A stretch of 64,000 bases of DNA from a virus (UHGV-0311442); one strand, 5' to 3'; shown: positions 13,751 through 30,142, counted from the stretch's first letter. Numbers and translations: made by a program. Notes: generated from the sequence alone by a model not told the origin.

Positions 13751-14314
13751 ATGGCTAATACGCTATTAGGTAAATCAGGAAAACAACTGGTTTATGAGTT
13801 ATTAGTAAAAAAGAATCCTGGTTTGGTAGAGAAAGGTATTACAATCGATAAGTTGAATTTTGGCACACCGTCACATATTCCTGCGGTAGAAACACCAGAA
13901 ACTCAATTTACGCGATTAAATACCCAACTTAGCGTCCAGGGAATTATTGAACAGAAAACGTTTGGTAAAATTGACGTTATTTATCGTCGGTTGGATTTAG
14001 AGCACCTCTTAGGTGACTTTGTAGTTTCTGTTGCGGGTATTAATGCGGCTACGGTATCTGAGGTACTACAGCTTTTTCGCACTAAGTACAATTTGCAGAT
14101 TACCGACGATGAAGTTGAGAACCCAACAGCTGCACCAGACAGCAAAGATAAAACCATCATTATCATGAATGGGAGATCTTTGGCGTGGACAGGTCGGCTG
14201 GAGGTGTACTTAACAGAGCTGCCGTCCGACGGTAAGGATATTTCGAAGTTGATTAAAGTCACCGAACTTGACGGCTTGACGTATATCTCTTCTGGAATTG
14301 TTCCAGGCGCTTAA
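13751..14314 (+). CDS. Hypothetical protein (187 aa)
   Basis: ATG with GAGAGG upstream; followed by a bidirectional terminator. Confidence 0.55.
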   Translation: MANTLLGKSGKQLVYELLVKKNPGLVEKGITIDKLNFGTPSHIPAVETPETQFTRLNTQLSVQGIIEQKTFGKIDVIYRRLDLEHLLGDFVVSVAGINAATVSEVLQLFRTKYNLQITDDEVENPTAAPDSKDKTIIIMNGRSLAWTGRLEVYLTELPSDGKDISKLIKVTELDGLTYISSGIVPGA

Positions 14315-14337: not shown

Positions 14338-14378
14338 TTAACCTACCTCCGAAAGGAGGTAGGTGCTTTTATTTATTT
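14338..14378. terminator. Bidirectional rho-independent terminator between convergent genes
   Basis: Stem ACCTACCTCC/GGAGGTAGGT, loop GAAA, A-run upstream and T-rich run downstream. Confidence 0.7.
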
Positions 14379-15203
14379 CGCCAAGTCTGCTTCTTTTACA
14401 AAGATGCCGTCGGCGTTCAGGTAACCTTTACGGTCTTTGATTTCGTGCCACGCCAAAGAGAAACAATGGCGAATGTTAAGACGGTAGTAAAGAGCCAGTT
14501 TTGCAAGACGGTGCAAAGCCCAACTTAACGTAACGGTGTCCAGTTCAGTACATAAGAACGCAGTAGCGAAGATTTCAGTAGCCTCTAAATACAACTGGTG
14601 TGGATATTTGGTATCGTTTAAACGTTCTTCAACGTCAGCGACATCGTCTACCTGCAACTGTAAACCGTGATCGATGACTTCACCGGTTGACATTCCGCAA
14701 GTCTCTCTGTCTTTATCCAGTTCCAGGATGTTTACCAGAACCACCAATGCATCCCCGATACCGTCCATGATCAGTTCAGGTTTGTTTTTACTGATACCTG
14801 TTGCGATTTCACCAAACTCTTCAAAGAACTTCGTGATTTGTGTTTCCACTTTACCGTTGTCGAGGATACCACGTTCCTTAGACCAACCTTTAACACGCTC
14901 TACACAGTTCTCGATAGAATAGACCGGAACCGCTACGGTGTGCATTACCGTACCGTTAAATTCGGCACCTGTAAGTTTAAGCGGCGCTTCAATCGTTTCA
15001 ATATCCAGTTCCTGATTGCCGGTGTGGCGTTTACCTTCTACACGAACACGGTTAGTACCAGGATTTACTCCGATGGTGTAGATAGCATCAAACTGAATCG
15101 CTTTCTCGTCCATAGCGCGTAGTTGTGTGTTAACTTCTTCCAGGAAGTTACCTGGGTTAAGAACGATGTTGTAGATAGCGTTGATGTTAAAACGTTCGCC
15201 CAT
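14373..15203 (-). CDS. MazG-like nucleoside triphosphate pyrophosphohydrolase domain protein with unknown N-terminal domain
   Basis: 276 aa; FFEEFGEIA...ELIMDGIGDALVVLVNILEL matches the MazG EExxE / D-x4-L pattern; ATG with GGAG upstream. Confidence 0.45.
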   Translation of the reverse strand: MGERFNINAIYNIVLNPGNFLEEVNTQLRAMDEKAIQFDAIYTIGVNPGTNRVRVEGKRHTGNQELDIETIEAPLKLTGAEFNGTVMHTVAVPVYSIENCVERVKGWSKERGILDNGKVETQITKFFEEFGEIATGISKNKPELIMDGIGDALVVLVNILELDKDRETCGMSTGEVIDHGLQLQVDDVADVEERLNDTKYPHQLYLEATEIFATAFLCTELDTVTLSWALHRLAKLALYYRLNIRHCFSLAWHEIKDRKGYLNADGIFVKEADLAK

Positions 15204-15214
15204 TTTAAATCTCC

Positions 15215-15262
15215 TAACAAAAAAATAATAAAGTAAAAAAGGGTGCTTGCATAAGCACCCCA
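15215..15262 (-). terminator. Rho-independent terminator (minus strand)
   Basis: Stem GGGTGCTT/AAGCACCC, loop GCAT, at 15241-15260; A-run on the plus strand just upstream gives a T-run on the minus-strand transcript. Confidence 0.6.
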
Positions 15263-15269
15263 GGAACTG

Positions 15270-15632
15270 TTAAATTTTGCAAGCCCCGCCTGAGCAGTTA
15301 TCGTCTTCCGTGGTCGGGTCGGCTCCCTTCTCTACGGTTGCTTCCGGGTCTAAGCCAGGGATTGCAAATTCGTCAGTTTCTTTAACGGTTTCTACTTTAA
15401 CTTCTTCGGTCATTTTAGTTCCCAATTTTCTTACAAAGGAGTTAGCAATTTCGATTTTAAGATTGGCAAAAGGTGATAGTAGCATTGCCAACCGTGGTAG
15501 ACTTGGCGGTGCCTCTTTATATTGTACAACGCGCACCTTCGACCTACCAGGACCCTTACGTACACGGTTGTAGCCAATAAAATATACAGTACCTGTAAAG
15601 TATCTCAGGCTGTGAAAGCGTGGTTTCTTCAT
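15270..15632 (-). CDS. Hypothetical protein (120 aa)
   Basis: ATG with AAGGAAG upstream. Confidence 0.5.
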   Translation of the reverse strand: MKKPRFHSLRYFTGTVYFIGYNRVRKGPGRSKVRVVQYKEAPPSLPRLAMLLSPFANLKIEIANSFVRKLGTKMTEEVKVETVKETDEFAIPGLDPEATVEKGADPTTEDDNCSGGACKI

Positions 15633-15821
15633 CGCACTTCCTTTTCGAACGGGTTAGTTTCAAGGAACTTGGAATAATCAAGTTGGATTACTTGGAAACG
15701 TTTACGCCCTTTGTTCGGCCCTTTACAATAACGTGTGTTAAAAGTACGGAACTTCTTCGGCTCGAAATACGCTATTGTGAAATTAAGAACATCGTCCAAC
15801 ATAAATTTTCCTTATCGTTAA

Positions 15822-16268
15822 CTAACCCATTAAATGTATTACAACGTCTTTAGTTACTGAGTTTGCTAGTAAGCGGAAAAACTTCATGTAACGGAACATG
15901 CTAAAGAAAACCCCAGCGTCGTCTACAATGACAAGACTGTATTTTTCTTTTTCTGTACCCATCTGATAACCAATGATTTGCGTGATATTCTCAGGCAAGT
16001 CTTCGAGACCCAAACGGAATAGCACATCGTCCTCTAAGAACCCTTTTGGGTTAACGAATAACACTTTCCCTTTATGGTTCTTAGCTAACTCGACACCGAA
16101 GTCTGTAAGTCCTGTCTGCCTGCCTGTACCGTAGCGGATAGTACGAAATTCAGATAAGGCATTGGGACCATAACGATCGGTAAACGGATTATCTTTAGAA
16201 TCCAGATCGGTTAAACCTTTTGATAATTCTTCTACTACGATGTTATAGTTAACATGAGTTTTAGACAT
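15822..16268 (-). CDS. Hypothetical protein (148 aa)
   Basis: ORF with ATG start in the minus-strand gene block; no motif recognised. Confidence 0.5.
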   Translation of the reverse strand: MSKTHVNYNIVVEELSKGLTDLDSKDNPFTDRYGPNALSEFRTIRYGTGRQTGLTDFGVELAKNHKGKVLFVNPKGFLEDDVLFRLGLEDLPENITQIIGYQMGTEKEKYSLVIVDDAGVFFSMFRYMKFFRLLANSVTKDVVIHLMG

Positions 16269-16297
16269 TTTATCGTTCCTTTTAGTTAAGTGGTAGT

Positions 16298-17332
16298 TTA
16301 CACCGCGACAGGCATGGCGATGTGCGGGTGTGATTGGTAACCGACTACTTCAAAGTCCTCGTATTTGTAGTCGAAGATAGATTCGGGTTTACGTTTAATA
16401 ACCAATTTAGGTAACGGGTACGGCTCACGAGTCAGCTGGAGTTTTATTTGATCGAGGTGGTTCAGATATAAATGCACATCGACTCCACTATAAACTAACT
16501 CATCGGGAACCATATTCAATTGTTGGGCAACCATATGAGTTAGCAGAGCGTATGACGCGATGTTGAACGGTTTTCCTAATGCGACATCGTTGCTCCGCAT
16601 CATGTAAAAACATGAAAGCTTACGGCGTGGAATACCTTCACGATCTAAAGTTTCATGAAGACGTTCTTCATCATCAATATCTTCGTGATTAATAAGTGGT
16701 GCGTTCGCAAATTTTTCCGGTTCATTTGCTTCGTACCAATCCAGTCGCTCAAGCAGTGTCATTTCCGTTGTGTAGAATTGGAAATAGTTGTGGCATGGGT
16801 TAAGTGCCATATCGTCCAGGTCACCTACATTCCAGGCACTAACAATAATACGTCGGGAGTCAGGGTCTTCACGAAGTTGCTGGATAACTTTGCTGATCTG
16901 GTCATGTGCTTTCTCATAGACCAAATACGTCGTACCATCTTCCTTCATATTCCCAATATACTTGTAACCCCGCTGCATTAGTTGTTGTGTACGTCTTACG
17001 TCATGACACTCCACAACTTTACAGTCACGCCATTCGCGCCACTGTTTACCATAAACTGGTCCTAAGTTCCCCTCTTCGTCACTCCATTCGTTCCAAATTT
17101 TTACCCCGTTCTCTTGCAGGTACTTCACGTTAGTGTCACCATTTAAGAACCACAGCAGTTCATGAATGATACTTTTCAGGTGAACCTTTTTCGTAGTAAC
17201 TAATGGGAAACCTTCTTTTAGGTCGAAACGTAGTTGGCGACCAAATACAGAAAGTGTCCCTACGCCTGTACGGTCTTTCTTGACAACACCGTTATCCAGA
17301 ATGTCTTGCATTAATGCTAAATACTGTTTCAT
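16298..17332 (-). CDS. thyA: Thymidylate synthase (ThyA type) with two in-frame insertions
   Basis: 344 aa aligning along its length with enterobacterial ThyA: [42 protein letters not shown], active-site [29 protein letters not shown]. About 80 extra residues in two insertions. Confidence 0.9.
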
Positions 17333-17640
17333 TAGATTTTGTCCTTTTCGAGTTCAGTTAAAATTTCAAACAGGTCTGCGTTGGATTGCAGTACGATTTC
17401 ACTGCCTTCTGCTACAACGGTAATTGAAGGCTTCTTACCACGTAGTAAGAACTCCCAACGCATTGTTCTTACGTGGCTGTCAAGTAACTGTTTTAATTTG
17501 TGGTTAACTTCAACTTCCAATTTGCCCAGTAACTGTGGTGTAATGCTTTCACCTGAGTTTTTGTTATAAAGTGTACGCACTAAAGAACGTAAAGAATAGC
17601 CAATGCACTGCGAAATTGCCCAACCCGAATAGTTTTCCAT
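17332..17640 (-). CDS. Hypothetical protein (102 aa)
   Basis: ORF with ATG start; its stop overlaps the thyA start. Confidence 0.45.
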
Positions 17641-17641
17641 G

Positions 17642-18187
17642 TTAATCCTTCAAAATGTCTTTAAGTTTTAGTTTTGTATAGAACGGAGAACTACTTAGTT
17701 CTTCTGTCCAACTTATACGTCCGTTCTGTAGAACCCGGTCGAAGATTAGGCCGTTCATCTTTACAATTCTGGCCAATTGATAAAAGAGCGTCGCGAGATG
17801 TAGACGCCGCTCCATTTGTGCGCGAGCGGTACAACTTCGTACCGCTTTGATAGCAAGTACCGCTTCTGGCATCAACGTAACCGCGATTGACTCAGGATGT
17901 TCGTTTTTCCATTTCTTAATGGCTAGTAGTCGGTGTAGCGATTTTTCAAGGGGACGTAAATCCCCGTTATTCATCACGTAAACTAGAGCAGCAATATCCC
18001 ACAAGGCGATACCCACCGCTTTAGCAACAAACAACCCGTCGTGTGTTGTCGTGGACTCACAGACTTTGCCAATACTTCCATAAACACGTGCAGTCCATGC
18101 GTCTGTCTGTTCGCCAGGTTTTATACCCGCGTTATCCAGAAAGTGTTTAAATGCATTAACGTGATCAGTTAACTGTATTTGTTTCAT
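17642..18187 (-). CDS. Hypothetical protein (181 aa)
   Basis: ORF with ATG start, tightly packed with neighbours. Confidence 0.5.
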   Translation of the reverse strand: MKQIQLTDHVNAFKHFLDNAGIKPGEQTDAWTARVYGSIGKVCESTTTHDGLFVAKAVGIALWDIAALVYVMNNGDLRPLEKSLHRLLAIKKWKNEHPESIAVTLMPEAVLAIKAVRSCTARAQMERRLHLATLFYQLARIVKMNGLIFDRVLQNGRISWTEELSSSPFYTKLKLKDILKD

Positions 18188-18201
18188 TTCCGATACCCGA
18201 T

Positions 18202-18750
18202 TTAGTCACGAGACTTTATTTTAAGGTACGCAACCGCAGCTCCCATGATTGCAATACCGGCACCCCAACCTATCTTTTCTACTACAGTCAAATCAGACCA
18301 TTTCTTCTCTTCCGTAGTAGACGAGTCAGTATTCGCTGAGAAGGCTTGTGCCCTCATGCGTTCCGTCTCAACATTGTTACGTTCGGCTTCGTCTTCTACC
18401 TGTTTCAACAACGCTTCGCGGTTTAGGTACTTGGCGTTTATCTCCGCAGCTCTGGCATTCATTTCCGCAGCCTTTTGACGTTTCCGTTCTTCAATTTTCC
18501 TAATCAGATCTTCTAAATAGAGCCTCGTTTCTTCCACAGCCTGCTCATAGACGTCTATGCGATCGGGAAGAACTCTCCTGTGGTTGGATTTGTTGCGAAC
18601 GGAGGCAATCATGTGGAGTTTCCGTTCGTATTTTGGTTCGAGAAGATAGGCTATGCTTTTGGTCTTCTCATGAAGTCCGCGACCAGTACCGCCGAGTTTT
18701 TCCACAAGTTCTTCTACAGAAATTGCAAGATCGAGAATATATCCACGCAT
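18202..18750 (-). CDS. HEPN-like protein with coiled-coil and C-terminal transmembrane anchor
   Basis: Start refined to ATG at 18748-18750 (GGAGA upstream; track start is a non-ATG codon at 18801). R-x4-H motif in ASVRNKSNHRR, charged coiled-coil region, C-terminal hydrophobic segment GWGAGIAIMGAAVAYL. Confidence 0.4.
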   Translation of the reverse strand: MRGYILDLAISVEELVEKLGGTGRGLHEKTKSIAYLLEPKYERKLHMIASVRNKSNHRRVLPDRIDVYEQAVEETRLYLEDLIRKIEERKRQKAAEMNARAAEINAKYLNREALLKQVEDEAERNNVETERMRAQAFSANTDSSTTEEKKWSDLTVVEKIGWGAGIAIMGAAVAYLKIKSRD

Positions 18751-18810
18751 AATTGTTTCTCCGCTTAAACGTAGTCTTGGGAGACATAAGTCTGTTCCCA
18801 ACTGTAAAAA

Positions 18811-19164
18811 TCATTTCAACAAAACAAGATGAATTTGGTATTCGTCATCCGCAGGAGAAGAATAATCGCCGGTTTCAGGAAACGATAAATCCCCTAGTAG
18901 ACTGTGGAAGGATAATCCGTGTACAGCTTCAACTTTTCGTACAAGCGGAAAACCTGTTCTTTTAATCCAATTGTAATCGACAAACAAAACACCACCAGGA
19001 CTTCCCGAGCCTGACCATACGCGAATATCCACAGTCTTTCCTGAGAAGTTGGCAAGAACGGTGCGTAGTTTTAATAGCACACCGCGTGTGAGGGGTACTT
19101 CAATAACAGATTCAGGGAATCTAAAACCGAATCCGTTGGGAGTATTAAAGAACTGAGCTTGCAT
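18811..19164 (-). CDS. Hypothetical protein (117 aa)
   Basis: ATG with AAGGAG upstream. Confidence 0.5.
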   Translation of the reverse strand: MQAQFFNTPNGFGFRFPESVIEVPLTRGVLLKLRTVLANFSGKTVDIRVWSGSGSPGGVLFVDYNWIKRTGFPLVRKVEAVHGLSFHSLLGDLSFPETGDYSSPADDEYQIHLVLLK

Positions 19165-19180
19165 GGTAAATTCTCCTTTA

Positions 19181-19222
19181 GGGTAAAAAATGAAAATACC
19201 CTACTCCTGTCTAGGAGTAGGG
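19181..19222 (-). terminator. Rho-independent terminator (minus strand)
   Basis: Stem CCCTACTCC/GGAGTAGGG, loop TGTCTA, at 19199-19222; A-rich run on the plus strand just upstream. Confidence 0.65.
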
Positions 19223-19228
19223 TAGGTG

Positions 19229-19888
19229 TTACATACGGGTAACTGAATCCCAGTAATCGCGAAGATATTCTTGATCCTCAGGATCTTTCGGTGTAGCCGG
19301 AATGTGGCCGTCAAACTCAAACGGAATTACAGACAGAACATCCGCAATCTCGTAACGCTCGACTTCCAGTTCAACTTTCACCCAGTCACCGACGCTGGTA
19401 CTACTACGCATCTCGGTGAGGAGATCGTTAAAGTCACCCGAAACTTCAATTGCGGGGTGTCCGGTGGTGATACTGAAAATATCAATATCCCAATGCTTAG
19501 CACCTTTATCGGCTAATTCGCCCGGTTCTAAGTGGATACGCTTCACCAGGTGCGCCAAATAACCGTCCTTGTAAAAAGAGAGTGCAGAACTAATACCGAT
19601 ATCCGAATTCTCTTCAACCTTTCCGTCCAGGAATTTACGCTTAAGCGTTAGCTGTGCTGTACCGTCTTCTTTAATACGGATACGGCGACGCCCGCCTTCT
19701 ATCGGCATGAGGATGTCCATGAACATCTTAGTGGACTGTGCGTGTAGCCAATCCCATCCCGCTTGCGTAGGTTTAACCCAGACGCAATATTCCTTTTCCA
19801 CTTCGCGTTTAATGGATTCGCCCGCAACGCGAATAACCTCTTCTTCCTGCGCTTTTTCCAATTGCGCAAGGGTATCGAATAATCCCAT
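19229..19888 (-). CDS. CYTH-like (triphosphate tunnel metalloenzyme) domain protein
   Basis: 219 aa; N-terminal REVEKEY (ExExK-aromatic), then GGRRRIRIKEDG (RxR) and AQLTLKRK, the usual CYTH motif order. Confidence 0.4.
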   Translation of the reverse strand: MGLFDTLAQLEKAQEEEVIRVAGESIKREVEKEYCVWVKPTQAGWDWLHAQSTKMFMDILMPIEGGRRRIRIKEDGTAQLTLKRKFLDGKVEENSDIGISSALSFYKDGYLAHLVKRIHLEPGELADKGAKHWDIDIFSITTGHPAIEVSGDFNDLLTEMRSSTSVGDWVKVELEVERYEIADVLSVIPFEFDGHIPATPKDPEDQEYLRDYWDSVTRM

Positions 19889-20730
19889 TAGATTAATCCC
19901 ATACTTTCACTGACGCTCGTAATGTCGAACGTTGTGTCGTTAAAGTCGATGTTTTCTACAATAGAAACCACCAGATTAGGAAGCCATTCCGAATGGGGTG
20001 GTGTAATAACCCGGCCGTTCATAACGTAGTAATGCAAGAACGGTAATCCCATCGAATGGCAGTACGATAACACATTACCTAAGCAGCTTCCGTCAAACTT
20101 CAAGAGTCGGAGCTTACGCAATAATGCGTTTTGAAATGCACCGTTCGCGTAATTGCTAAACTCGCCAGGCCGATAATCCGTGCCCCCGTAGATACTCGCC
20201 TTTAATCGACGACCGTGTTGTATACATTCAGCCCCAGTCAGGGTGCGTAATAAACGGATGTCAGGATATTCAGTTTCCAAACGACCCAACGCGTTTATTC
20301 CGTAGCCCTTGTAGAACAGATAGTCTACGATCCTTAAATAATGATAGTAGCCTTCTAACGTTAAAAACTGACCATGTATCGTGTCGAATTTCGCACCGTT
20401 AGGTTGCGCGTAGAAGTTACTGATCATTTTCCCTACGGTAGTACGACCGTTAGAGTAAAGGTTAAGATGGTTGATACCATCGGTAAAAGGGAGTTTTTCG
20501 GGTAACGCACAAACGTAGCCTAAACGACGAAGGTATAGGACATAAACAAAGCGCTCATCAGGAGTAAGCACGATGTTTGACGCGTTAACGTATCCATTAG
20601 GATTATTTCGCCCAGGTTGATAACCCAGCGTTAATGCCAGAGCGTGATTGTCTTCGCCCTGACTTTTGATCTTCTTTAATACGGAACGCAGTAATTGTGG
20701 TTCGGACATAACCGGCCTCTTAAATAGCAA
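19888..20730 (-). CDS. Hypothetical protein (about 270-280 aa)
   Basis: ORF in the minus-strand block; true start may be an internal Met. Confidence 0.5.
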   Translation of the reverse strand: MLFKRPVMSEPQLLRSVLKKIKSQGEDNHALALTLGYQPGRNNPNGYVNASNIVLTPDERFVYVLYLRRLGYVCALPEKLPFTDGINHLNLYSNGRTTVGKMISNFYAQPNGAKFDTIHGQFLTLEGYYHYLRIVDYLFYKGYGINALGRLETEYPDIRLLRTLTGAECIQHGRRLKASIYGGTDYRPGEFSNYANGAFQNALLRKLRLLKFDGSCLGNVLSYCHSMGLPFLHYYVMNGRVITPPHSEWLPNLVVSIVENIDFNDTTFDITSVSESMGLI

Positions 20731-22021
20731 AATAGTCTTCCACGATTTTATCGGTAGACTGGTAACTTACACTGCCCGCAGCAATCACGTAATTACGTTT
20801 CTCAGTGGTCAGTAGCGCCTGAATCGCATTTACGCCTGCATAGGTGTAAAGTTTAAGTTCAGTCATTTCCGGCGTGATGTTTTTCGCTTTGTCCCACTTT
20901 GCATCTAATCCTTTAAATAGCGTTAATAGACGAGTACCATACGTTTTGAAACTGACACCAGGTTCAACCCGTAGGTTAGCCATGAGGTTCTGGATAACGG
21001 TGGCTGCGATCTGGGTCCCTTGTCCCGGTTGCAGTTTATCCAGATAGTATTCCGTTGAATCGAGATTACCTGTCGCTGCCGCCTGAATCATCAACTCGCC
21101 GTACAGTACCTCTTTCGCTTGTGCATCAGTAATCGCTTGAAGCATCGGCTCAATTTTAGCCGGTAAACCATAACTGTTCAGTTTGGTAGATAGGCCATAA
21201 ATCAGCGCTGAAGAGGTATTAATGTCTAACGTGGAGAAACTGTCGCTGCCTTTAAAGCTGTTAATCAGGTTATCGATGGCTAAGAAGTCGTCTAAGTCTT
21301 TGTAGCTGTCGAAAGTATGTTGTACGTCATCAACGATCGAGGTGATTTGATAACGCATACTGTTGACTTCAGACATAAACCCGTTGACTTCTTGGCTAAC
21401 TTCCGAGGGGAGTTTAGCCAGTTGCCCAGCAATGTTCATCGTCCCTTCGAGACGTTTTTTCACCGAGTTAAAGTCAGTACCGATACCTGATAAAACAGAG
21501 TCGGTTAAGCTGCCGATGCTGTCCCACCCTTTACCTAACAGCTTCCCCATTCCACCTGGACTTAGGTAGTCTAACGCCTTTAGACCATCTTCATCCTTTT
21601 TCTTAAAGGGTTCAGAAACGTCACGCTTTTGTGGGTCGAGGACAGGAAGCGTTTCTTTGGTGTTAGATGCAAAACCGGGAACCTTTTGTCCTGGCGACAC
21701 CCCCGAGGCTGAACTCCCCGCAGTCTTAGTTCCCCCAACACTGGCGGTATCACTACCGCCAAAAAGGTTACCAATTTTGCTGGTCAGCTCGTTACCACCG
21801 CTAAGCAGTTTGTTGAATGTTTCACCAGCACGTTCTGATAATCGGTTGACGTTATCGACCGTGTTCTTAATACCACGCTCCGCATTTTCCACCGTTGTTT
21901 GTACGCGGTTTGCGGCGTTCTTTGCCGTATTAACGGAATTATCGATTGCCGACTGACCTTTATTTATCTGACTGGTTATTTGGTCGATTTTCATTCTGGT
22001 CTCCAATTTGGTATTCGTCAA
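20720..22021 (-). CDS. Hypothetical protein with coiled-coil N-terminus (433 aa)
   Basis: Long ORF; N-terminal 100 aa rich in Q/N/K/E heptad-like sequence, Gly/Ser-rich linker. Confidence 0.55.
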   Translation of the reverse strand: MTNTKLETRMKIDQITSQINKGQSAIDNSVNTAKNAANRVQTTVENAERGIKNTVDNVNRLSERAGETFNKLLSGGNELTSKIGNLFGGSDTASVGGTKTAGSSASGVSPGQKVPGFASNTKETLPVLDPQKRDVSEPFKKKDEDGLKALDYLSPGGMGKLLGKGWDSIGSLTDSVLSGIGTDFNSVKKRLEGTMNIAGQLAKLPSEVSQEVNGFMSEVNSMRYQITSIVDDVQHTFDSYKDLDDFLAIDNLINSFKGSDSFSTLDINTSSALIYGLSTKLNSYGLPAKIEPMLQAITDAQAKEVLYGELMIQAAATGNLDSTEYYLDKLQPGQGTQIAATVIQNLMANLRVEPGVSFKTYGTRLLTLFKGLDAKWDKAKNITPEMTELKLYTYAGVNAIQALLTTEKRNYVIAAGSVSYQSTDKIVEDYFAI

Positions 22022-22805
22022 GGTTTACCGTGACCTGAACTTCGTAGATTTTATTGTCTTTCTGACGCCTTAAAGTCAAAAGGATTTCGAAACTACGAAC
22101 ATCAATTGCCTTGAGTACCCTCATAAACCATTTCCAGGAAAACTTCTTTTTTAACCTTAGATTGTGCTGCATGTTGTGTCGCAAATCATTTCGTTTCGAC
22201 GGTGTTTGCTCACAGTTAGCAGGATCGTTAACGAAGTTTGTGGAAAGACGGTACCACCAGTCCGCATTCATTTTCATGTTTGCGAAGATAGTCCAAGTTA
22301 ACCGAGATAACGGATGTACCATCATCTTTGCGGTCTCACCACAGTTCTGGAAATAACGGTTCAGTTGCGCAGTTGCAGACTCTTTAGGTCGTTCGTCGTT
22401 ATCTTCGAACAAATCCCGAGCGAGATCTTCACGCACGCGTGTGGTAATTTCAGATACGGTTTTTGTTTTGAAGTGTCCTCGGTAAGTGGTTACACAAATC
22501 CGCAGTGTCTCCACTCCGGTAATCACCAACCCTTCTGTAAAACCTCGCCAGGTAAGATCGACAGGTAGTGCAGGGATGTTACCTGAACTCAGCTTCGTGG
22601 AGATACGTTGTATTCGATCGTCCATCGTTGCTTTTGAACGTGTTTTAAATTCTGGAGACAGAATATGTTTGGCGACGGCGAGTTTATAATCCGAAGGCTT
22701 CCATCCGATCAATTCTTTATAATTCCAATATAGTGTTTGAAGTGGTCCGCCTGCACGTTCGTCTTCAGCGTCCACGACCACACTTACTTTTTTGCTATCC
22801 ATCAC
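21960..22805 (-). CDS. Hypothetical protein (281 aa)
   Basis: ORF with ATG start. Confidence 0.5.
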   Translation of the reverse strand: MMDSKKVSVVVDAEDERAGGPLQTLYWNYKELIGWKPSDYKLAVAKHILSPEFKTRSKATMDDRIQRISTKLSSGNIPALPVDLTWRGFTEGLVITGVETLRICVTTYRGHFKTKTVSEITTRVREDLARDLFEDNDERPKESATAQLNRYFQNCGETAKMMVHPLSRLTWTIFANMKMNADWWYRLSTNFVNDPANCEQTPSKRNDLRHNMQHNLRLKKKFSWKWFMRVLKAIDVRSFEILLTLRRQKDNKIYEVQVTVNLDEYQIGDQNENRPNNQSDK

Positions 22806-28245: not shown

Positions 28246-28298
28246 AAAAGTAAAGTTACCCCTAGACCACACGGTCTAGGGGTAAACTATTTATTTCC
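28236..28298. terminator. Bidirectional rho-independent terminator
   Basis: Stem CCCCTAGACC/GGTCTAGGGG, loop ACAC, A-run upstream and TAAACTATTTATTT downstream. Confidence 0.7.
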
Positions 28299-29190
28299 CA
28301 CGATAAAATCCAGAAATGTAACTCGGCGCTATCCATCGCCATTCGCGCCAGCGCATTTCTGACATTTTACCACACCATACACGCTTCCAATGCGCACGAC
28401 GGATATGTGCGGCGCAATAAATCGCCAAACAAACCTCGTGTCCTTCCTTGCGTTGCTGCTCTATATCTTCCCATTGTACCGGACTTACGTCTAAAACGAC
28501 TGCTTCACTACGTGGGCGAATTTCTGTATCAGGAACATAACGAATGGACCTTCCGCGAAATTCTTTTTTCTCGCGCTCAGTTCGTTTAATTCGTGATGAA
28601 AGATATAACCCGATGTAGACGGCGTCGAGTAGTCGCTGATTCTCCTTAACCGAAGTAAGGAGCGGCTTTAACTCCACGAAATCATCATTACTTTTATCGA
28701 TCGTGTAAATCTCAAACTCCATGTATACCGACTCGTCATGTTCTTCGCATGACATCACAAAGAGAACTTCTTCACCTTCGTAAAGACGTCTTCCGATAAA
28801 TAACGTGATCGGACATTCGTCGAGATTTACGGTAACCGAGAAAGTAAATGAAGGGATGGTTTCTATCCAGAAGTACGGGATATTTTTTAGTCTCTCAGTT
28901 TTTGCTAAGAGTGCCATCAGTTCTTCATCCGAGATGATTTCAACAGCAGCGTATTGCCATCCTAGTCCCAGGGACTGCTTAATCAGTCTGGGAATCTGTT
29001 CGGTAACGCCATACTCACGATAGGTCGGATCTTTAACTGGCATAAACGTTACAGGTATTTGACGTTTATGCTCGTTAATGAACCGAATAAAGCGGCACTG
29101 ATCCAATCCGTGAATTGTTTGGTGTGCCTTTTCTATCTGTTCGCTCATGCGTCTTAGCGCTTTCCCGTAAAGTCTATTATTCGTTGTCAT
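28291..29190 (-). CDS. Hypothetical protein, paralog A of a tandem pair sharing a C-terminal AHIRRAHW motif
   Basis: Start refined to ATG at 29188-29190 (AGGAGC upstream), about 300 aa. C-terminus CAAHIRRAHWKRVWCG...WREWRWIAPSYISGFY matches the neighbour's AAHIRRAHWRRYWVGP...LYWIPPTFVRGYV. Confidence 0.6.
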   Translation of the reverse strand: MTTNNRLYGKALRRMSEQIEKAHQTIHGLDQCRFIRFINEHKRQIPVTFMPVKDPTYREYGVTEQIPRLIKQSLGLGWQYAAVEIISDEELMALLAKTERLKNIPYFWIETIPSFTFSVTVNLDECPITLFIGRRLYEGEEVLFVMSCEEHDESVYMEFEIYTIDKSNDDFVELKPLLTSVKENQRLLDAVYIGLYLSSRIKRTEREKKEFRGRSIRYVPDTEIRPRSEAVVLDVSPVQWEDIEQQRKEGHEVCLAIYCAAHIRRAHWKRVWCGKMSEMRWREWRWIAPSYISGFYRGK

Positions 29191-29215
29191 TTTAATGCTC
29201 CTAAACACTTTTAGC

Positions 29216-30142
29216 TTAATTGTGGGGTACGTAGCCACGGACAAATGTCGGTGGAATCCAGTAAAGTTTTCTCTTCCTTTCACCATTTCTAGGACCGACC
29301 CAATATCTGCGCCAGTGCGCGCGACGAATATGTGCGGCCTTGGCGTGTTTGATACCTTCCATGGTTTTCAAGTCAGTGTTAAACCCTTTTAGATAATTCA
29401 CTTGTCCTGGCGTGATATCTATCTTAACATCGCGTTCACGAGGTTTAACGTCGTAACTAATACTACCGTTCTTTTTGATTTCCTTGAACTTAATATCATT
29501 AAAAGACTCCCTGTAATTAGGCGGGATTAGCGTACAGAGAAATATCAACGATATGGCGGTTTTGGCCAGTGATAGCCATAACGTCTTCTCTTGTTCGGTC
29601 TGTACGCCAGTTGTATAATCGATTTCAACAAGCCCGTTTCCAACACTACATATCTCTAACGAGCAGGTGGCGATCGTGGTAACGCCTTCTGTTAACCCGT
29701 AATCAGTATTTGTAGCAATTATAATAAACCTTCTATTCCCATTTTTTCGATAACCGAGAAAGAAAGTCTCATCTTCTTTACCTACATCGATTGCTACAGT
29801 CCAAGTAGGTATAAAGTCTAACCACTCTTCAGGGAATTTACTGGGCATCTCAGTCTCGAAAACAAGTTCTCTAAGTGCTCGATTGGATATTAAGGAAGCG
29901 CCCCCGTATAGCCATCCAATTGCCAATGTTTGTGCGTGAAGGGAACGGGGATCTTTGAGACCTAACTCAGCGTCGTATGGTATAAAGGCATTAGTTAAAT
30001 GCTTACGATTCTTTTTTATCCATTTCGAGACGGGATTTTCTTTTGTTTGATTTTCTTCCATGACATTTTCTAGATGCTGACTCCCCATTTGTCTAAGGCA
30101 GTCTTTAATACCTTTTACTTTTTTACTTTTGTACAAATACAT
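29216..30142 (-). CDS. Hypothetical protein, paralog B of the same pair
   Basis: 308 aa, ATG with AGGAGA upstream; shares an internal LGWQY/IGWLY segment and the C-terminal motif with paralog A. Confidence 0.6.
   Translation of the reverse strand: MYLYKSKKVKGIKDCLRQMGSQHLENVMEENQTKENPVSKWIKKNRKHLTNAFIPYDAELGLKDPRSLHAQTLAIGWLYGGASLISNRALRELVFETEMPSKFPEEWLDFIPTWTVAIDVGKEDETFFLGYRKNGNRRFIIIATNTDYGLTEGVTTIATCSLEICSVGNGLVEIDYTTGVQTEQEKTLWLSLAKTAISLIFLCTLIPPNYRESFNDIKFKEIKKNGSISYDVKPRERDVKIDITPGQVNYLKGFNTDLKTMEGIKHAKAAHIRRAHWRRYWVGPRNGERKRKLYWIPPTFVRGYVPHN

Follow-up and report, generated by a model that had tools for sequence, protein, structure and literature searches.

The 64,000 nucleotides of DNA from the virus UHGV-0311442 that were analyzed here (in the following, the window) encode, between positions 14373 and 19888, a MazG-like protein, a thymidylate synthase (ThyA) and a CYTH-like protein of the triphosphate-tunnel (TTM) type, which raises the question of whether these three genes form one functional unit. 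A preliminary description of the sequence had proposed a single nucleotide-metabolism cluster. This proposal was not borne out, considering terminator-like hairpins within the region, the virion location of an orthologue of the CYTH-like protein, the loss of ThyA in a relative and the scattered positions of dTTP-related genes. The 5.5 kb probably represent pieces of three separate transcription units, including a putative packaged TTM hydrolase, ThyA and a stand-alone MazG-like enzyme, and not one module.

All three open reading frames (ORFs) were found on the minus strand at exactly the limits given before, namely the MazG-like gene at 14373–15203 (276 amino acids, aa), thyA at 16298–17332 (344 aa, uninterrupted) and the CYTH-like gene at 19229–19888 (219 aa), surrounded by a dense block of minus-strand ORFs. 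The phage is a nucleus-forming, phiKZ-like jumbo phage (Chimalliviridae) and kin of Salmonella phage SPN3US; it probably belongs to the proposed genus 'Bapsvirus' of this family (PMC12768965). Split multisubunit RNA polymerase (RNAP) beta subunits, a giant tail protein, a UvsX-like recombinase, RNase H and SbcC are encoded in the window, as determined by PHROG scans. Sensitive blastn and tblastn searches identified SPN3US (Seoulvirus) and the Erwinia phage Asesino (Erskinevirus) as nearest kin, and megablast against the phage record collection returned no close relative. Protein identity to SPN3US-like and Erwinia jumbo phages amounts to only approximately 40–58%, with the gene order being kept, and conservation at this level indicates that the three ORFs represent real genes. 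Hundreds of assemblies of Salmonella, E. coli and Shigella isolates contain contigs of 220–226 kb that encode near-identical proteins; these contigs match the proposed 'Bapsvirus' and a possible carrier state. The SPN3US orthologues are gp225 for the CYTH-like protein (195196–195855), gp229 for ThyA and gp235 for the MazG-like protein, given that gene numbers in this phage run in the order of the protein accessions, which was checked with gp75, the major capsid protein.

Within the region, the three genes are parted by two to five unrelated ORFs and by terminator-like hairpins. A strong hairpin on the minus strand (19197–19224; 12-bp stem followed by TTTTCATTTT) is located 5 nt past the stop codon of the CYTH-like gene. 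Another minus-strand hairpin, upstream of the MazG-like gene (15240–15261; 9-bp stem followed by TTTTTACTTT), is placed between a small ORF (15270–15632) and the MazG-like start codon and closes the unit containing thyA, while a two-way hairpin (14341–14364; both strands, 10-bp stem with T-runs) stands between the MazG-like gene and a convergent virion gene (13751–14314). SPN3US possesses hairpins of differing sequence at the three matching positions (L001:8970-8945, L001:3912-3889 and L001:2482-2507, respectively), and this conservation of position argues for three separate transcription units. Furthermore, the gene order in a distant relative (L014), consisting of a UvsX-like gene, an RNAP subunit gene, the genes labelled N, L and K, one non-homologous ORF and the TTM gene, equals that of the window upstream of the TTM gene, and downstream of it a Dam methylase gene replaces the ThyA block. 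In another relative (L013), no ThyA was seen either. In SPN3US, the genes for dTTP supply and that for MazG are scattered over the genome, with dihydrofolate reductase (DHFR) at 58 kb, thymidylate kinase at 93 kb, ThyA at 198 kb and MazG at 201 kb.

The CYTH-like gene is the last gene of a block of virion genes comprising those for a virion RNAP subunit, a tail protein and others. The stop codon of the gene preceding it (19888–20730, minus strand; a 280-aa protein of phrog_652) overlaps its start codon in the sequence TAATG, and both genes are probably translationally coupled; the same adjacency is present in SPN3US and Asesino. At 19880–19905, nine bases are repeated (ATGGGATTA ... ATGGGATTA) at the end of the upstream gene and at the start of the CYTH-like gene, both of which read M-G-L around TAATG. 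A NADAR/YbiA-like motif suspected in the phrog_652 protein was unsupported by BLASTP against YbiA and by a PDB search.

The assignment of a CYTH-like fold holds, as the AlphaFold2 (AF2) model of the protein, computed with 32 homologues (pLDDT 87.9, pTM 0.80; residues 1–23 of low confidence), and its comparison by means of Foldseek gave a triphosphate-tunnel fold. Top matches were CYTH proteins, the TTM domain of the vaccinia capping enzyme and Med18/20. According to the model, the protein is a member of the TTM superfamily, in that eight antiparallel strands form a barrel with paired acidic residues on strand 1 and on a C-terminal strand and with basic residues on the strands in between. The mature barrel (residues 25–219) carries E31, E33, R69, R71, K83, E92, R117, D134/D136, K171, E173 and E175. 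In an alignment including the most distant members (19–31% identity), E31, E33, R69, R71, K83, E92, W133, K171 and E173 were invariant and Y34, T81, R117, D136 and E175 nearly so, and the conserved residues alternate along the predicted strands, which corresponds to the catalytic layout of TTM enzymes.

At the sequence level, neither the single protein nor the family profile matched any entry of Pfam, NCBIfam, PADLOC or the PDB sequences, and the Pfam CYTH family (PF01928) was matched by none of 32 close and ten distant members at E-values up to 10. A search of the family profile against PDB sequences yielded only noise, and the comparison of the family with E. coli YgiF by means of hhalign was confined to a non-significant stretch of 12 residues (LTLK versus MTMK). 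An exhaustive hidden Markov model search of 1.84 billion representatives placed the size of the family at 27 representatives, all from jumbo phages and none with a CYTH match; two sources already label members as 'CYTH domain-containing protein'. Class IV adenylate cyclases of the CyaB type, whose motif is HFxxxxExExK (bioRxiv 10.1101/2024.09.24.614635), were rejected as a candidate, since HF is absent from the segment VAGESIKREVEKEY preceding strand 1.

A link to the virion is provided by the orthologue in SPN3US. Scheuch et al. (PMC10052503) described gp225 as a low-abundance head protein of unassigned function, from which a 24-residue N-terminal propeptide is cut off at ARE-24 by the prohead protease gp245. 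This protease recognizes A-x-E and favors V at P4 as well as S at P1' (PMC10052503), and spectral counts for gp225 were 107–120 in virions and 59–108 in tailless heads (supplement of PMC10052503). In the same supplement, gp223 is listed as a tail protein and ThyA as non-virion. The CYTH-like protein of the window is 58% identical to gp225, of equal length and provided with the same neighbours, and its cleavage motif is co-positioned, so that a propeptide of residues 1–24 (nt 19817–19888, minus strand) ending in V21-A22-G23-E24|S25 is predicted. The full motif occurs at the co-located site in 31 of the 32 TTM relatives, with E24 and S25 being invariant and A22 conserved in at least 90%, and the low-confidence N-terminus of the model stops right at this site. 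On account of the conserved VAGE|S site, we infer that the window protein is packaged and trimmed like gp225.

Genetic data from SPN3US point in the direction of essential functions. Table 1 of an amber mutant study by the same group (PMC5105663) reports, for 50 pooled conditional-lethal candidates, C-to-T changes that include positions 195232 (gene 225; 6.4% of reads) and 201073 (gene 235; 3.3%). Both changes fall on CAG codons, namely Q13 of gene 225 and Q35 of gene 235, which suggests essentiality of the two genes. No mention of gp225 or gp235 was found in two other papers on SPN3US. Regarding the block upstream of the phrog_652 gene (20720–22805), the orthologue of the 433-aa protein is the tail protein gp223 and in gene 222, which encodes the orthologue of the 281-aa protein, codon W35 is changed to an amber in the conditional-lethal pool; this block therefore appears to be rich in virion or essential genes.

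Taking the model and the conserved residues together, the CYTH-like protein is most likely a packaged triphosphate hydrolase. It would be incorporated into the head and trimmed after E24, as is gp225, and the mature protein would act as a divalent-metal-dependent enzyme in which the two ExE strands bind the metal and R69, R71, K83, R117 and K171 hold the triphosphate. Presumably ejected into the cell together with the DNA, it may act at the onset of infection. With respect to its substrate, a free triphosphate or NTP-like compound is the option to which we give a little less than an even chance, 5'-triphosphate (5'-ppp) ends of RNA appear rather unlikely, and the remaining probability falls to some other substrate or to none.

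The MazG-like family call also stood, as the protein contains a helical NTP pyrophosphohydrolase domain with intact acidic motifs. It belongs to the all-alpha NTP pyrophosphohydrolase superfamily (MazG/dimeric dUTPase/HisE), its modelled fold being helical and provided with EExxE as well as another acidic motif for Mg2+. The protein matched phrog_7855 over its full length (E 9e-74), and phage MazG-like families matched from residue 96 onward. Pfam MazG (PF03819) scored below its gathering threshold (18.4 versus 22 bits, E 0.0027), equally weak matches were obtained for 20 out of 30 relatives, and dUTPase_2 (PF08761) was matched neither by the protein nor by 29 relatives at E-values up to 1. 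In an alignment of 30 relatives sharing 34–90% identity, approximately 43 of the 181 positions of the C-terminal, catalytic helical domain (residues 96–276) were invariant, including K125, E128, E129, D147, E254, K256, D257 and R258, with E132 and D151 conserved in at least 90%. Some relatives (P0193 and P0195–P0202) are 420–467 aa long, compared to approximately 280 aa otherwise, and contain an extra region.

The N-terminal extension noticed in the preliminary description does exist; its length is approximately 95 aa according to the PHROG match and the model, and not 130 aa, a figure that approximates the start of the Pfam MazG core match at residue 120. In the AF2 model (pLDDT 80.2), a beta-alpha-beta4 domain at residues 4–93 precedes the helical domain. 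This poorly conserved alpha/beta domain (residues 1–95; nt 14919–15203, minus strand) has two invariant positions, M1 and F5, and such a conservation pattern, compared to that of the C-terminal domain, makes the suspected second catalytic site unlikely. No relative of the domain was detected, as a search with the profile of the MazG-like protein among PDB sequences gave only spurious tropomyosin matches to it, and its role would be non-catalytic.

Structurally, the MazG-like model is closer to dimeric dUTPases (C. jejuni 1w2y, staphylococcal phage 5myd and Leishmania 2yay) than to small MazG proteins, and differs from both these dUTPases and MazG/MazZ/HisE proteins by its additional alpha/beta N-terminal domain. 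A trimeric dUTPase was found neither in the complete SPN3US genome nor in the window, and genomes of the SPN3US type carry ThyA, DHFR and thymidylate kinase. Based on the structural likeness and the missing trimeric dUTPase, dUTP/dUDP is the single likeliest substrate, a tentative choice to which we assign about one chance in three. The protein would be a stand-alone, non-virion (d)NTP pyrophosphohydrolase releasing (d)NMP and pyrophosphate and, on the dUTPase reading, would supply dUMP to ThyA, which converts dUMP into dTMP in the cytoplasm. The dCTPase-dUTPase gp56 of phage T4 likewise provides dUMP to thymidylate synthase.

For ThyA, comparisons with Pfam, NCBIfam, the PDB and E. coli ThyA agreed on the assignment. 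The protein scored 370.8 bits against Pfam PF00303 (E 4e-111; cut-off 24.3), exceeded two NCBIfam equivalog cut-offs (NF002499, 411.6 versus 405; NF002497, 396.8 versus 327) and matched E. coli ThyA structures in the PDB at 3e-110. Hallmarks of the enzyme are, in E. coli numbering, Cys146 in the PCH motif, R21, R126', R127', R166, H207, Y209, W80, W83 and D169, and N177 is responsible for the use of dUMP rather than dCMP. All of them were found in the window protein by alignment with ThyA of E. coli, SPN3US and Asesino. The window enzyme is 67% identical to that of E. coli and has kept the catalytic Cys, the four phosphate-binding Arg residues, N177, H207 and Y209; in contrast to E. coli ThyA, it contains two clade-specific insertions of approximately 80 aa in total (approximately at aa 103–142 and 190–236), which are common to SPN3US and Asesino, and features some unusual, lineage-specific changes next to the active site, where QLYQ adjoining R166 is replaced by FYMM (including Q165M), D81 by N and GGDTHLY by GVDVHLY. 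Both thyA and the gene of the MazG-like enzyme count among the ordinary auxiliary genes that assist replication in a large lytic phage.

Among close relatives, thyA was found to be a hotspot of mobile elements (L004:12550-14358, L005:12550-15169 and L006:12549-13921). A group I intron (Rfam RF00028, 64.8 bits) follows the R166 codon in L004, and L005 has an intron at the same site, equipped with a GIY-YIG/NUMOD3/I-TevI-like endonuclease; L006 possesses an additional 106-aa ORF in front of the gene. The situation resembles that of T4 td, in contrast to which the window allele is intron-free, and a search for a second group I intron in thyA of the relatives was negative. Relative to these genes, the 3' third of the window thyA is 71–79% identical and the 5' part 93–95%. 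In L004 (12801–13476) and L005, ThyA carries an in-frame insertion of approximately 200 aa after 'GVKIWD', with a WKRMMHRCYD...YGAKGV motif and a helix-turn-helix-like stretch, which was rejected as a canonical intein; an E. coli-like 'VGPDGRHHDQIS' stands in both proteins where the window ThyA has its first insertion.

How do these results bear on the idea of one nucleotide-pool module that combines dTMP supply, (d)NTP sanitizing and the breakdown of alarmones or triphosphate signals during replication? All three folds were confirmed, the genes are co-directional with an order kept in SPN3US, Erskinevirus and the window phage, and the breakdown of unmodified NTPs has been put forward as the task of MazG-like and CYTH triphosphatases in a jumbo phage survey (PMC7824862). 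However, an order shared inside one clade reflects inheritance and is no independent evidence, hairpins part the genes, the orthologue of the CYTH-like protein resides in the head and ThyA is non-virion, and the ThyA neighbourhood is gone in the distant relative L014. Triphosphate-directed hydrolysis by the MazG-like and CYTH-like proteins is plausible in view of their conserved residues of catalytic type; the (p)ppGpp or alarmone part of the earlier claim received no positive support, and the sole characterized phage MazG, from a cyanophage, does not hydrolyze magic-spot nucleotides (PMC6850273). Altogether, we consider such a module improbable. A different role for the packaged TTM protein would be that of an RNA 5'-triphosphatase on the first transcripts of the co-packaged virion RNAP, as the phage equivalent of the TTM module in the capping enzymes of poxviruses and mimivirus, enzymes that are carried in the virion together with the polymerase. 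That gp225 and the virion polymerase are both in the head, that the gene shares its block with a virion RNAP subunit gene and that the SPN3US orthologue is possibly essential fits this role, which we nevertheless regard as unlikely: Pfam and PHROG scans showed no guanylyltransferase or cap methyltransferase nearby, phiKZ and 201phi2-1 package a like polymerase without a gp225 homologue (PMC10052503), and the TTM family is small.

Similarly doubtful appears a non-catalytic head component whose charged barrel binds DNA, a partner protein or a small ligand, in the manner of Med18/Med20 and possibly YjbK. The presence of Med18 and Med20 among the structural matches, the missing canonical ExExK lysine, the status of gp225 as a low-abundance structural head protein and the finding that YjbK, representing the family of the best hit, may regulate MurA (bioRxiv 10.1101/2024.09.24.614635) are in favor of such a component, but E31, E33, E173, E175 and five basic residues are invariant or nearly so down to approximately 20% identity. 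Metal-dependent TTM catalysis requires these acidic pairs and basic residues, whereas a scaffold does not, which argues against the latter. Several points also weigh against the preferred reading of three transcription units with a packaged hydrolase. The terminator scan relied on matching a simple consensus, and read-through of such hairpins by jumbo-phage polymerases may occur. No sequence profile ties the TTM family to CYTH, and a strict ExExK is lacking, since E31-x-E33 is followed at the fifth position by C, V, M, S, F or Q and never by K. Hydrolase activity of the TTM and MazG-like families is predicted from fold and residues, and the likeness of the MazG-like protein to dimeric dUTPases may reflect no more than its larger helical domain; at the sequence level, the protein matches MazG and not dUTPase_2. 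Head location and cleavage are known for SPN3US alone, at 58% identity to the window protein, and the ambers in genes 225 and 235 originate from the pool, neither being among the individually sequenced single mutants.

Other features of the region concern the intervening ORFs. Two of them (17332–18187, minus strand) represent a split gene, in which proteins of 181 aa (17642–18187) and 102 aa (17332–17640) correspond to one gene of 289–303 aa in SPN3US and Asesino (phrog_10269). The junction AAGGATTAACATGG consists of a stop codon, one nucleotide and a start codon, with a Shine-Dalgarno-like AGGA; three related contigs show this split as well, so that it does not represent a sequencing error. 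A likeness of the N-terminal part to the MazG fold was detected at the profile level only and without acidic motifs, and pairwise similarity between ORF 17642–18187 and the MazG-like protein was absent. The 120-aa ORF at 15270–15632 matches small phage families only in its last 31–35 residues (...DDNCSGGACKI), its counterparts in SPN3US and Asesino have 62 and 51 aa, and it is probably over-called. Further away, at 28291–30142, the window contains two adjoining paralogues of 331 and 308 aa (phrog_6160), whose counterparts in related contigs carry the Pfam domain AcrVA2-like (PF26125).

As a 'cluster', the trio of genes is ordinary, and the packaged TTM protein is the moderately interesting lead. 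If active, it would constitute a new kind of enzyme among the few capsid-carried phage proteins acting at entry, and a concrete function would be given to an SPN3US gene that is possibly essential in this genetic model, in a lineage found very commonly among isolates of Salmonella, E. coli and Shigella. More specifically, phages of the SPN3US/Erskinevirus/'Bapsvirus' group might inject the packaged enzyme together with the genome and the virion RNAP, where it would target the 5'-ppp of the first transcripts or a triphosphate immune or stress signal of the host before phage gene expression; we deem this scenario a long shot. The transcript option, if true, would be a bacterial-virus parallel of the virion-packaged capping-enzyme triphosphatase of poxviruses.

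The survey by Iyer et al. (2021, PMC7824862) found MazG-like and CYTH triphosphatases scattered across jumbo phages and proposed a degradation of unmodified NTPs for phages with modified DNA. Both superfamilies are likewise encoded in the window, itself from a jumbo phage, but the case differs from that description in that the CYTH-like member is tied to the virion and no sign of base modification is present. Compared to the known CYTH/TTM enzymes, such as BH2851 (PDB 2gfg, YjbK-like), E. coli YgiF (5a61), NE1496 (3typ) and thiamine triphosphatase, the protein lacks the ExExK lysine and instead has an invariant K171 adjoining the C-terminal ExE; moreover, a predicted propeptide bearing a site for the prohead protease stands at its N-terminus, and its orthologue is located in a phage head. 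The occurrence of both triphosphatases in jumbo phages and the nature of gp225 as a head protein were known before. In comparison to the study on gp225 (PMC10052503), which gives neither fold nor function, the present analysis contributes the TTM fold and the conserved tunnel residues, so that the facts about this head protein are now joined to a fold, to a residue-level case for activity and to the placement of its gene in a virion block.

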